From a bacterium (GTDB lineage: Bacteria; Spirochaetota; Spirochaetia; Treponematales; UBA12059), in assembly GCA_035530295.1 (NCBI GenBank), contig DATKVB010000009.1, positions 13,587-77,586 on the forward strand: a stretch of 64,000 bases of DNA. Direction: 5' to 3'. Under the pieces are notes generated by a model. That model was not told the DNA's origin, did not search any database, and saw nothing but the letters and a program-made list of their open reading frames with translations. The first letter of the stretch is position 1. Every line of letters starts with the position of its first letter. Positions 26,505 through 48,461 of the stretch are shown here, piece by piece. Both the position numbers and the translations under genes were made by a program.

Positions 26505-26545
26505 TTGAGTGATGTTGTGAGCCAATGCTTCACCGCTCCCTTGTG

Positions 26546-26660
26546 TAGTATCACGAAGCTTGTTATGGACTCGAATTCCATACTGGATGGGCCCATCCCT
26601 GTGTGCGCCGATACCATAGGTAGTATCCCGGGCTCGCCCGTAACAAGCTTCGAGGAACTA
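26546..26660. repeat. 115-bp element with about 20-bp inverted termini (copy A)
   Basis: Termini are TAGTATCACGAAGCTTGTTA (26546-26565) and TAACAAGCTTCGAGGAACTA (26641-26660). The reverse complement of the right terminus matches the left terminus of copy B (46719-46737) at 19/19 positions. Internal hairpins are present. Confidence 0.7.
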
Positions 26661-45912: not shown

Positions 45913-46683
45913 ATGAAGGACGACGACAGGAATATCATGATTGTGGTCGCGTATGACGGCACCGAATTTCAGGGCTGGCAGCGGCTCGGGGGCGGCGCGC
46001 GTACCGTCCAGAAGACGCTGGAGGATGCGCTGTCACGCGCGCTTGCCGGCAGCATAAACGTGGTGGGCTCCGGTCGAACAGACGCCGGCGTGCATGCCGA
46101 CGGACAGGCCGCCAATTTCTGGACAACGTCGAGCATGCCGCTCGACACCATGGTGAGCCGGCTCAACGATGTACTGCCACGGGATCTTGTCTGTGTCTCT
46201 GCCCATGCGATGGTGCCGTCGTTCCACGCCCGCTACCGCGCCGTGTCCAAGATCTATGCCTACCGCTTTCATGACGGCCTCGTCCGTGATCCATTCCTGG
46301 TTCGCTGGACGCTTCACGCGCCCGCGCACCTGGACGACCAAGCGATGCGTGCGGCCTGTGCCGCGCTGACCGGCCAGCGCGACTTCTCTGCGCTCTGCAA
46401 TGCCAAGGAAGACGCGCGCGGCTTCGTCCGGAACCTGGTCTCCGCCACCGTTGAGCGGCGCGGCGACCTCGTCGAGGTGGCCTTCATCGCCGATGGCTTC
46501 CTGTACAACCAGGCCCGCGTGATGGCCGCCTGCCTCTATGAGGCAGGATTGAGGCGGATGACTCCTGCCCGCCTCGCGTCGCTGGTCGAATCGCGCGACA
46601 GGAGCGCCGCACCCGGGGCGCTTGGCGCCTACGGACTCAGGCTGGTGAAGGTGGAATACAGGGAAGAGGACTTCATACGCTGA
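45913..46683 (+). CDS. truA: tRNA pseudouridine(38-40) synthase TruA
   Basis: Contains VAYDGTEFQGWQ, the catalytic GSGRTDAGVHA and the C-terminal GLRLVKVEY. Confidence 0.9.
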   Translation: MKDDDRNIMIVVAYDGTEFQGWQRLGGGARTVQKTLEDALSRALAGSINVVGSGRTDAGVHADGQAANFWTTSSMPLDTMVSRLNDVLPRDLVCVSAHAMVPSFHARYRAVSKIYAYRFHDGLVRDPFLVRWTLHAPAHLDDQAMRAACAALTGQRDFSALCNAKEDARGFVRNLVSATVERRGDLVEVAFIADGFLYNQARVMAACLYEAGLRRMTPARLASLVESRDRSAAPGALGAYGLRLVKVEYREEDFIR

Positions 46684-46718: not shown

Positions 46719-46834
46719 TAGTTCCTCGAAGCTTGTTGCTGGTACCAGTAACCACAATAAATGGTATGGTCCGATAGTCGAAGAGTACCTCGGGTAGTAT
46801 CTTCCTTGGGTAAAGCACAAGCTTCGATGAACTA
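46719..46834. repeat. 116-bp element with about 20-bp inverted termini (copy B)
   Basis: Termini are TAGTTCCTCGAAGCTTGTTG (46719-46738) and GCACAAGCTTCGATGAACTA (46815-46834). It shares the subterminal GGTAGTATC with copy A, 41 nt from the right end in both copies. Confidence 0.7.
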
Positions 46835-46849
46835 GTCATGGATACGGAA

Positions 46850-47128
46850 TCAGCTCACTCCGCCCACGGAGCCGGACATCTGCATATGATAAATCCATGC
46901 CTGGCCTTGGCGGCTCTTTCTGGACCCGCGTTCGCCCGCGCCCACCTCGTCGGGCGTCTTCATCACCTCACTTACGGCATCATTCGAAAGCCTGTCATGA
47001 TAGTAGCCGCAATTTGCACATCCCCTCCTGATCACGAAGGGGGGGCAATTCCCAGTGTCGCCAGGGGGCAGTCTCTCGTGTCGCCTGACGTTCTCATACA
47101 AAAGACCATCAGTCCCCCAGAATGACAT
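46850..47128 (-). CDS. hypothetical small Cys-containing protein
   Basis: ORF MSFWGTDGLLYEN...CPPFVIRRGCANCGYYH with G/C-biased third codon positions, a weak RBS and no recognised motif. An overlapping plus-strand ORF (46838-47125) is an alternative. Confidence 0.3.
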   Translation of the reverse strand: MSFWGTDGLLYENVRRHERLPPGDTGNCPPFVIRRGCANCGYYHDRLSNDAVSEVMKTPDEVGAGERGSRKSRQGQAWIYHMQMSGSVGGVS

Positions 47129-47157
47129 CTCGTAGCATCCTATCTGCATAATCGCTA

Positions 47158-47186
47158 TTGACCCGCACGCTACTACGTGATACATT
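47158..47186 (+). promoter_or_regulatory. sigma-70-like promoter candidate for the padR operon
   Basis: TTGACC, a 17-nt spacer, then TACATT. It is flanked by TACTAC / GTAGTA inverted and direct repeats (47171-47206) that could be a PadR operator. Confidence 0.45.
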
Positions 47187-47241
47187 ATAGCTGTAGTAAG
47201 TAGTACAGCATACAAGTTATACAGAATAGCAGGAGATGATC

Positions 47242-47571
47242 ATGCAGGAAAACCTGACAGAAATGCTCAAAGGCGTACTTGAGGGCTGTGTACTCGAAAT
47301 AATTAGTCGGAAAGAAACCTACGGCTACGAAATCACGCGGCGGCTGAACGCCCTCGGCTTCTCCGATGTTGTTGATGGAACGGTGTACACCATCCTGATC
47401 CGGCTCGAAAGGAACAAGCTGGTAGAGGCCACGAAAAAGCTATCCGACATAGGACCGCCGCGCAAGTTTTTCGCGCTCAATGACGCGGGCCGTAAGGAGC
47501 TCGATAAGTTCTGGGGGAAATGGGATTTTGTTTCGTCACGAATCAAAGAGTTGAGGGAGGAGAGAGAATGA
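47242..47571 (+). CDS. PadR-family transcriptional regulator
   Basis: Contains LKGVLEGCVLEIISRKETYGYEITRRL and TVYTILIRLERNKLV. ATG at 47242 lies 6 nt after AGGAG. Confidence 0.85.
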   Translation: MQENLTEMLKGVLEGCVLEIISRKETYGYEITRRLNALGFSDVVDGTVYTILIRLERNKLVEATKKLSDIGPPRKFFALNDAGRKELDKFWGKWDFVSSRIKELREERE

Positions 47572-47915
47572 ACTTCTGGGAAAAGATCACAGGGAGCGAC
47601 ATGAAAAGGGAATTGAAATCTCTTGAGTTGCGAGCCCGGAAGCTGCCGGTTGATTATCAGGCGGCATGGGGAAAAATCGAAGGCAATCTTTGGCCGCATT
47701 CGGATCTTAGCGGTCGCAATCTCATGCCAATTCTTGACGGTGTGATTGGACTGCTCGAAGAAGCGGCCGGGGATGGTCAGAGTATCCGGGAAGTCCTGGG
47801 CGACGATATCAAGGGATTTTGTTCAGCATTAATCGGCGAAGAAGGTGCGATGTCTTTTCGCGACAAGTGGCGCAACCAGCTGAACAACAACATTGCCAAG
47901 AAGCTAGATATCTAG
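47568..47915 (+). CDS. DUF1048-family protein
   Basis: ATGA overlap with padR. The pattern KRELKSLELRARKLPVDYQAAWGKIEGNLW matches my recollection of DUF1048, a family commonly found next to PadR. Confidence 0.65.
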   Translation: MNFWEKITGSDMKRELKSLELRARKLPVDYQAAWGKIEGNLWPHSDLSGRNLMPILDGVIGLLEEAAGDGQSIREVLGDDIKGFCSALIGEEGAMSFRDKWRNQLNNNIAKKLDI

Positions 47916-47924
47916 GAGGATGCA

Positions 47925-48275
47925 ATGAGAATACGAGATATCATCGAAGGAAAAAGAGAGTGGCGAGCGCATATGGCGCGTGTCAAAGCACTCCCGCACG
48001 ATTATCTGATTGTTTATAAGGAGATTCAACAATATCTCTTTAAGGTCGGCCCTGTAGAGCTAACCGAGGGGATTGGCTTGCTCTCGGGGGTTGTCGATCT
48101 TCTTGAACAAGGCGTAGCTTCGGAGAAAGATGTGCTCGAAGTGACGGGCCGTGATGTAGCGGGCTTCTGCGACGATCTGATCAAAGATTCGAAAACTTAC
48201 GCTGACATCTATCAAGAGTCTGTTGATCAAGAGACCAACAAGGCTGTGAAAAAGGTTGCGGACAGAATAAAGTAA
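47925..48275 (+). CDS. DUF1048-family protein (paralog)
   Basis: Contains KREWRAHMARVKALPHDYLIVYKEIQQYLF and is a paralog of the preceding gene. Confidence 0.65.
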   Translation: MRIRDIIEGKREWRAHMARVKALPHDYLIVYKEIQQYLFKVGPVELTEGIGLLSGVVDLLEQGVASEKDVLEVTGRDVAGFCDDLIKDSKTYADIYQESVDQETNKAVKKVADRIK

Positions 48276-48386
48276 AAGCGGATATTGGGATGGATAAGGA
48301 CTCCAAGTGAAACGGCTTCAAGAGTCCTACAAGATGCTTCATGGTCTGAATGGTGTCCACGGTCATGGTGGGGATGGGATGCCGAG

Positions 48387-48461
48387 GCTAGACCCGCCGG
48401 TTCGGACGGAGCCTACGGTTTGCGCTTGGTCCGCGTAGAATACCCTGCCGAAGATTTTTTC
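48387..48461 (+). pseudogene. remnant of a truA 3' end
   Basis: Translates to ARPAGSDGAYGLRLVRVEYPAEDFF, compared with the TruA C-terminus SAAPGALGAYGLRLVKVEYREEDFI. The DNA has diverged mostly at synonymous positions. Confidence 0.5.

Follow-up and report, generated by a model that had tools for sequence, protein, structure and literature searches.

What are the two repeats of 115 and 116 bp, alike at their inverted termini and different in their interiors, that lie 20 kb apart in the 64-kb stretch of spirochaete DNA analysed here (the window)? An earlier note, made from the sequence, had described them as a two-copy element and had left three readings in play, namely a recombination site, a MITE-like element or a structured RNA, each of which it preferred to a simple terminator. 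We consider it highly probable that both copies are non-coding MITE insertions, and that they belong to a family that shares its ends with an insertion sequence, by which it is most likely moved in trans.

Two copies between convergent genes

Copy A occupies positions 26546..26660 of the window (115 bp) and copy B positions 46719..46834 (116 bp, the modal length of the family). Both match the family profile (nhmmer E 4e-12 and 2e-17, respectively), neither is assigned a strand, and each span includes a flanking TA at either end. The copies have in common inverted termini of 18–20 nt, TAGTTCCNCGAAGCTTGT, and a TAC-N8-GTA motif that is situated 36–49 nt from the right end. The left terminal inverted repeat of copy A (26546..26563, plus strand) reads TAGTATCACGAAGCTTGT; its right counterpart (26643..26660, minus strand) has the reverse complement TAGTTCCTCGAAGCTTGT, which is the exact family consensus. 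That same sequence, TAGTTCCTCGAAGCTTGT, forms the left terminal inverted repeat of copy B (46719..46736, plus strand), and the reverse complement of copy B’s right terminus (46817..46834, minus strand) is TAGTTCATCGAAGCTTGT.

Further inwards, each arm carries an unstranded subterminal motif of the general form YRC-N8-GYR. In copy B these motifs are CAC-AATAAATG-GTA on the left (46753..46766) and TAC-CTCGGGTA-GTA on the right (46786..46799). The right-arm motif of copy A is TAC-CATAGGTA-GTA (26612..26625, 36–49 nt from the right end), and its left-arm motif (26581..26594, read against family columns 36–49) is a degenerate TAC-N8-CCC that has lost its 3′ half-site. Both right-arm motifs include GGTAGTATC, which starts 41 nt before the right end in the two copies, just as the earlier note had reported; the TACC-NNN-GGTA feature that it recognized around this sequence is in fact the right-arm copy of the family motif, and the positions, lengths (115/116 bp) and four termini that it gave are all accurate. 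Copy A looks partly decayed: it falls 1 nt short, and 2–3 mismatches are present in its left terminus.

When up to 3 mismatches are allowed, the 20-mer TAGTTCCTCGAAGCTTGTTA has four matches in the window, which are the four ends of the two copies, and none in 100 shuffles; TACCNNNGGTAGTATC occurs in the window exactly twice, at 26612 and 46786. An nhmmer search of the 64-kb window with the family profile yielded no copy beyond A and B. The description ‘two-copy’ therefore holds within the window; elsewhere, the family is far larger (see below).

Each copy is situated between convergent genes, copy A being 42 nt downstream of the upstream ORF, and copy B starting 35 nt past the truA stop at 46683. 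Only stop-to-stop artefacts cross the copies, which are thus without coding capacity. The whole copies fold at z values of about -4.6 and -4.8 (-43 to -45 kcal/mol); these low values arise from the terminal inverted repeat. The idea that each interior folds into several hairpins did not survive our analysis, since interior folding across the family has a mean z of -0.44, which shuffled sequence would equal. An intrinsic terminator was also considered and, in agreement with the earlier note, was rejected: no terminator-like site lies over either copy, and the sequence that follows the stems (GTCATGG or AATGAGG) has no T-run.

Copy B adjoins a stretch of lower G+C at ~46.7–48.4 kb (0.48–0.57, versus 0.61–0.75 on either side); this neighbourhood, like the distance of 35 bp from the truA stop, is as originally described. 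The genes of the low-G+C stretch (46850–48400), which is situated between truA and a pseudouridine synthase gene, encode a 111-aa hypothetical protein (on the minus strand), a PadR-family protein and two DUF1048 proteins, and they may have been acquired horizontally. The supposed tie between copy B and this islet finds no support: the islet’s right border shows neither an element copy nor a solo end (nhmmer), and elsewhere the family simply occupies intergenic spacers, mostly at the 3′ ends of genes.

Size and anatomy of the short-element family

We scanned one genome per species with the query CGAAGCTTGT-N65-95-ACAAGCTTCG, and obtained at least 103 matching stretches. Among the matches listed, about 75 are from Spirochaetota MAGs; nearly all of these are 115–116 bp long and have the same termini (in full, TAGTTCCNCGAAGCTTGTG...CACAAGCTTCGNGGAACTA). 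Their hosts are MAGs of Spirochaetaceae UBA5200 and PPR_0594, Treponematales JTS-AC194, several Treponemataceae, SZUA-370 and others. The core-to-core span, again among the matches listed, is 97–101 nt in 76 elements and exactly 100 nt, the value that corresponds to a 116-bp element, in 57. The fetched pieces alone contain at least 22, 15 and 18 copies in three MAGs. No copy was found in viral contigs. A published census describes Spirochaetes genomes as rich in MITEs (PMC11602168); our search of the literature on the terminal sequences, and on spirochaete MITEs and insertion sequences, gave only primers or general surveys.

The other listed matches (Acidobacteriota, Pseudomonas and others) are unrelated palindromes, such as GTAGGGTGGACAACGCGAAGCTTGTCCACC, in which the 10-nt core is present by chance: loci L084 1600–1686 and L091 3738–3825 (Pseudomonas), and loci L031, L055 and L062 (Acidobacteriota, Sedimentisphaerales). 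We also noted sister families that retain the CGAAGCTTGT core inside other outer termini (AGTGTCACG..., GAGTGTACCG..., and GAGTTCCTCG/AGTGACTCG...), with 85–111 nt between the cores (loci L017, L069, L087, L089; L095, L100; and L002, L024, L038, L041, L052, L072; Treponema and Treponemataceae MAGs). The sister families suggest that there is a wider superfamily of related short elements.

The short element itself is non-coding, 116 ± 1 bp long, and has TA at both extremities. Its terminal inverted repeats, TAGTTCCNCGAAGCTTGTG, are about 18–22 bp in length (18 bp are conserved, and the repeat reaches ~22 bp). In an alignment of 74 copies, this 22-bp terminal stem is paired in 92% of cells, and paired changes occur at 5/113, 7/111 and 8/110. 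Median pairwise identity is 0.89 for the termini and 0.35 for the interiors, compared with 0.26 for random sequence. The only other conserved block is the subterminal palindrome, YRC-N8-GYR, which is degenerate, mirror-symmetric and positioned 36–49 nt from each end; the anchors that make up its two occurrences (C38, G47, C71 and G80) are each present in at least 95% of copies.

The covariation score for the stem pairs plus two 3-bp YRC/GYR mini-stems exceeds that of all 500 shuffles. On the other hand, the YRC/GYR triplets of a motif pair form just 3 bp, and are paired in about 75% of cells. Moreover, the state of the triplets varies by genome: a Treponemataceae MAG of lower G+C has TAC/GTA, and MAGs of higher G+C have CGC/GCG. 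The triplets are also often mispaired inside one genome (e.g., CGC with GTG, or CAC with GCG). Because their state follows the genome and they are so often mispaired, we read them as a degenerate palindromic DNA site and not as an RNA helix. A scan of all column pairs found no interior helix, and RNAalifold predicts only the terminal stem. Two further structures were entertained and discarded. The whole element is not a palindrome, even though several minimum-energy folds pair the subterminal motifs: in-register pairing is 0.32, versus 0.31 between different elements. Kissing loops, or two conserved hairpins, are rejected on the grounds of the 3 bp per motif pair, the genome-dependent state and the frequent mispairing.

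Another feature is the constancy of length. That it is held to within 1 nt despite near-saturated interiors would not be expected from simple neutral decay of dead copies; instead, it suggests that only those lineages that keep this geometry go on spreading.

A probable partner insertion sequence and its predicted transposase

A search of the fetched loci with a single terminus revealed five pairs, 1222–1234 bp apart, that read TAGTTCCNCGAACCTTGTGA...TCACAAGGTTCGNGGAACTA. The five long elements that they delimit (~1.23 kb) are bounded by TAGTTCCNCGAACCTTGT...ACAAGGTTCGNGGAACTA, and each contains one ORF of 375–381 aa (~376 aa). The ends of the long and short elements have 17 of their 18 terminal bases in common, and differ by one base per arm (AACCTT in the long versus AAGCTT in the short elements); the interior of the short element is not derived from subterminal sequence of the insertion sequence. 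Long elements occur in UBA5200, SRP062349_co3_32 and, very probably, the window’s MAG (see below), and there are partial copies in JTS-AC194 and PPR_0594.

The 64-kb window holds no transposase. One member of the transposase family, HUW70510.1 (VMX33_09760), falls within the NCBI accession block of the window’s HUW69470.1 and HUW69472.1, ~1,040 numbers away from them, and all three bear the label ‘MAG TPA ... [bacterium]’; the contig that carries HUW70510.1 and the window’s contig belong to sister assemblies of one ENA series. The element in which the protein is encoded is 1227 bp long with TA at both ends. The window’s own MAG very probably encodes this protein.

In the transposase, a CxxC...CxxC zinc finger at the N-terminus is followed by an HTH and then by a D-D-E core of RNase-H fold, the D126, D216 and E266 of which do not vary among 38 sequences. 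In an AlphaFold model (pLDDT 87, pTM 0.88), D126 is on strand 123–130, D216 is just past strand 211–215, and E266 is on helix 258–274; the three residues are thereby predicted to occupy the catalytic-triad positions of an RNase-H-fold transposase, which places the protein in the D-D-E transposase/integrase superfamily. Among PDB structures, Foldseek gave its best scores to retroviral integrases, Mu transposase, ISCth4 and Metnase (probability up to 1.00, E down to 3e-4); a sequence-profile search of the PDB returned nothing meaningful.

Family libraries have little to say about this protein. Its N-terminus weakly matches NCBIfam ISL3 (E 2e-7), IS1 (0.02) and a PHROG transposase (4e-7), and there are weak matches to HTH_38 in 26/38 members and to HTH_Tnp_ISL3 in 23/38. 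Pfam rve and NCBIfam IS30 gave no match at E up to 1 (two proteins), nor in any of the 38 members; the DDE_3/IS630 models and DDE_Tnp_ISL3 did not match either, and a plasmid collection that was searched with the transposase contained no match. The homologues number more than 750, nearly all of them without a Pfam domain and named ‘hypothetical’ or ‘transposase-like’, and many of their contigs are only 1.2–1.5 kb long; an exhaustive profile search gave 401 clusters (50% identity) at E up to 1e-30. The ~1.23-kb element, we conclude, is an insertion sequence of the D-D-E type which existing family libraries leave unclassified. A bolder proposal, which we put forward tentatively and regard as possible but not probable, is that it represents an undescribed family, largely confined to Spirochaetota, whose zinc finger, HTH and integrase-like D-D-E core go unrecognised by Pfam and NCBIfam. 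By the same proposal, the MITE’s length of 116 ± 1 bp and its second palindrome, 36–49 nt from each end, would reflect a transposition complex that gauges both the distance and the phase between the ends, recognizes a pair of sites in each arm, and selects palindromic targets like its own inner repeat.

Two irregular arrangements of these elements were also recorded. In locus L108, a full-length insertion sequence (1440–2653) has, in the place of its left end, a short element of ~124 bp with AACCTT-type ends (1316–1439); the right end of the insertion sequence is of the AAGCTT type. The alternatives here are a composite element and an insertion sequence that has had its left end replaced. In three metagenome contigs (L110, L111 and L112, around 1370–1500 and 2640–2700), a distant transposase homologue (47% identity) has the same downstream genes and different upstream genes, with a terminus-like sequence upstream, in an unexpected orientation.

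How do the two elements compare with known systems? The Correia elements of Neisseria are bacterial MITEs of about 100–155 bp, with 26-bp terminal inverted repeats and a TA duplication. The short element is in the same size class, is likewise non-coding, has terminal inverted repeats of ~20 bp and TA at both ends, occurs as tens to hundreds of dispersed intergenic copies, and has the potential to form a long RNA hairpin when transcribed. Unlike the Correia elements, to which it is unrelated in sequence, it has a plausible autonomous partner in the same genomes, a length that is fixed to ±1 nt around near-saturated interiors, and a second block, YRC-N8-GYR, 36–49 nt from the ends.

The partner insertion sequence resembles IS30 in its size (about 1.2 kb), its single ORF of ~380 aa, its HTH_38-type N-terminus (a weak match, in 26/38 members), a catalytic core whose closest structural counterparts are retroviral integrases, and a 2-bp repeat at the ends. 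IS30 is described as preferring targets that are nearly palindromic and as inserting beside its own terminal repeats (PMC9333248); the partner likewise favours palindromic, hot-spot-like targets and inserts beside its repeats. It differs from IS30 in matching neither Pfam rve (PF00665) nor the NCBIfam IS30 model, and in its extra N-terminal CxxC...CxxC zinc finger. Abutting solo termini are here in direct orientation, outer tip against inner end, whereas in IS30 the IRL and IRR are arranged tip-to-tip.

With ISL3 and IS1, the transposase has in common the domain order of zinc finger, HTH and D-D-E core, along with the matches over its N-terminal ~100 residues. The ISL3 match is, however, worth 30 bits over residues 14–117 only, against a cut-off of 180 bits for NF033550, and the catalytic half is unmatched. 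Furthermore, ISL3 and IS1 make 8–9-bp duplications, whereas there is no 8-bp duplication here outside the TA. The IS630/Tc1-mariner group, a well-known source of MITEs, uses CTAG or NTAN targets. The elements described here share with that group a similar size, insertion at TA with an apparent TA duplication, and a pyrimidine before and a purine after the TA; they differ from it in that no DDE_3/IS630 model matches. A zinc-finger N-terminus is not a known feature of the IS630/Tc1-mariner family. In sum, the parent element is most like IS30 in its behaviour and most like ISL3 and IS1 at its N-terminus, and it falls outside the IS30, ISL3 and IS1 families by their own membership tests.

Insertion sites, movement and rival explanations

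Evidence that the short elements have moved comes from sibling copies inside single MAGs, the interiors of which are 79–96% identical while their 38-nt flanks are only 18–42% identical. With interiors so alike and flanks unrelated, the repeated unit must end at the TA. In each of three orthologous intergenic spacers, JTS-AC194 carries an element and another MAG has none; these pairs are only about 80% identical and are too diverged for the junction to be read. Searches of metagenomes for precise empty sites (that of copy B, and that of the insertion sequence in locus L106) gave no match. Copies with one eroded terminus also exist. The copies are intergenic and avoid divergent promoters (19 convergent, 24 tandem and 3 divergent contexts), and many are located 2–40 nt past a stop codon; in the tandem contexts their orientation relative to the upstream gene shows no bias (10 same, 12 opposite).

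The insertion site has its own signature. In 79/88 elements, TA flanks GTTCC...GGAAC on both sides, and no longer direct repeat is present outside. The look at target-site duplications that the earlier note had recommended thus finds the TA on both sides and nothing longer; the TA itself may just as well be the terminal base pair of the inverted repeat as a duplication of the target. Read towards the element, the flanks have the consensus TAAGSCTTAAY-TA | TA-RTTAAGSCTTA (from about 88 elements in loci L001–L109, plus window positions 26534–26545 and 46835–46846), which is A/T-rich and roughly palindromic. The CTT at -8..-6 is found in 31% of flanks; for background TA sites of these loci the figure is 3.5%. 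The preferred flank resembles AAGCTT, the inner part of the terminal repeat. Since flanks differ between sibling copies, this consensus represents a target preference; the alternative, that it is part of the element, was rejected because siblings with interiors that are 79–96% identical have flank identity at the random level.

In about 9/90 elements, a solo terminal repeat of 17–19 nt abuts a complete element in direct orientation, 2–4 nt away, either on its left (L012 905–925, L037 1492–1512, L040 6293–6313) or on its right (L070 1843–1863, L086 5189–5209, L029 3775–3793, L045 4036–4056, L068 1969–1987); L070 contains a third, partial copy of the terminus as well. The remainder of the presumed older element was not seen on the other side. 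In several loci (e.g., L009 2177–2292, L012 924–1039, L075 4318–4433 and L090 967–1082), the TAG with which the element terminates (CTA if read on the opposite strand) is the end of the neighbouring ORF, so insertion may supply or replace a stop codon.

We have now described short, non-coding elements with terminal inverted repeats, present as many dispersed copies that bear signs of movement, and a related autonomous element with matching ends; all of these are attributes of MITEs. The MITE-like reading in the earlier note is supported by a large dispersed family, an insertion sequence with matching ends, siblings in unrelated flanks, and presence or absence at orthologous sites. Mobilisation of the short elements in trans by the ~1.23-kb insertion sequence is the most likely mechanism. 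We envisage full-length copies elsewhere in the genome as the source of the transposase, which would bind the shared termini of the short elements and possibly also their subterminal palindromes. The short elements would then be moved in trans into a TA within an A/T-rich, roughly palindromic context (TAAGSCTTAAY-TA). Such target sites would mostly be just past stop codons, where insertions are tolerated; copies A and B would be two such insertions between convergent genes, the former now partly decayed.

This model assumes cross-mobilisation over the one-base difference between AAGCTT and AACCTT. The tally of AAGCTT in short versus AACCTT in long elements (88 versus 5) was made with a short set that had been selected with AAGCTT. 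Six short elements that were found without this selection comprise four of the G type, one of the C type and one mixed, and one insertion sequence has an AAGCTT-type end. A strict rule of AAGCTT for short and AACCTT for long elements was therefore rejected.

We weighed three rival explanations against MITE insertion. One, compatible with a transposon origin, is that the host has taken over a MITE-derived element: in read-through RNA, the 22-bp stem could be an RNase III target, a stabiliser or an attenuator, or the conserved blocks could bind a host protein, and copies would be kept by selection for this role. Such a role would be in keeping with the enrichment of copies downstream of genes (convergent and tandem contexts versus divergent ones, often close to a stop codon), with the strong predicted stems, and with a fixed length and near-invariant anchors (C38, G47, C71, G80) in elements whose interiors are 35% identical. 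We nevertheless consider it unlikely. Orientation is indifferent to the upstream gene, eroded-end copies occur, single MAGs show recent bursts of near-identical copies, and orthologous sites may be either occupied or empty; there is no T-run for intrinsic termination, and the positional bias would be expected of the tolerated insertions of any element that targets A/T-rich sequence.

That the repeats are small genes for structured RNAs, or RNA motifs that act in cis, in which a conserved stem closes off a variable and possibly guide-like interior, is a good deal less probable again. The fixed length and the covariation described above, in both the terminal stem and the YRC/GYR mini-stems, are what such an RNA might display, but paired terminal changes are also expected of two ends that are bound by one protein, and the same ends bound a protein-coding insertion sequence. 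No Rfam model matches, either at the gathering score or at E up to 1. The interiors fold like shuffles, have no helix in any pair of columns and are not palindromic in register; the YRC/GYR state depends on the genome and is often mispaired within it; both strands score nearly alike and orientation is random. We give the lowest credence of all, close to dismissal, to a site-specific recombination site (integron attC-like or Xer/dif-like) that marks the border of the low-G+C islet. Integron attC sites are found in cassette arrays with a nearby intI, and have the core sites RYYYAAC / GTTRRRY. The imperfect palindrome, attC-like length, conserved ends and variable centre do recall such a site, and copy B does abut the lower-G+C stretch; however, the copies are single and dispersed, 20 kb apart in the window and one per spacer elsewhere, without cassette arrays, and the islet’s other border has no partner. 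There is no linked integrase or recombinase, the protein that is linked to the family having a D-D-E and not a tyrosine-recombinase fold, and the inner ends (GTTGCTG, GTTATGG) do not fit GTTRRRY.

MITE insertion being the preferred reading, the candidate ‘novel RNA or recombination site’ can be removed from the annotation of the window, in which the repeats are selfish insertions between convergent genes; in the case of copy B, nothing links the element to the acquisition of the neighbouring low-G+C genes. Among uncultured spirochaetes, the family provides an abundant and clear-cut case of a MITE paired with an IS, and is an ordinary kind of element. Its practical consequences include the breaking of assemblies (hence the transposase contigs of often just 1.2–1.5 kb), and the annotation of its members as ‘hypothetical protein’, since the transposase is invisible to domain libraries. 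For their hosts, these elements can supply stop codons and long hairpins at the ends of genes. For the family, the strict length and the subterminal motifs offer a handle on how a D-D-E transposase recognizes very short substrates.
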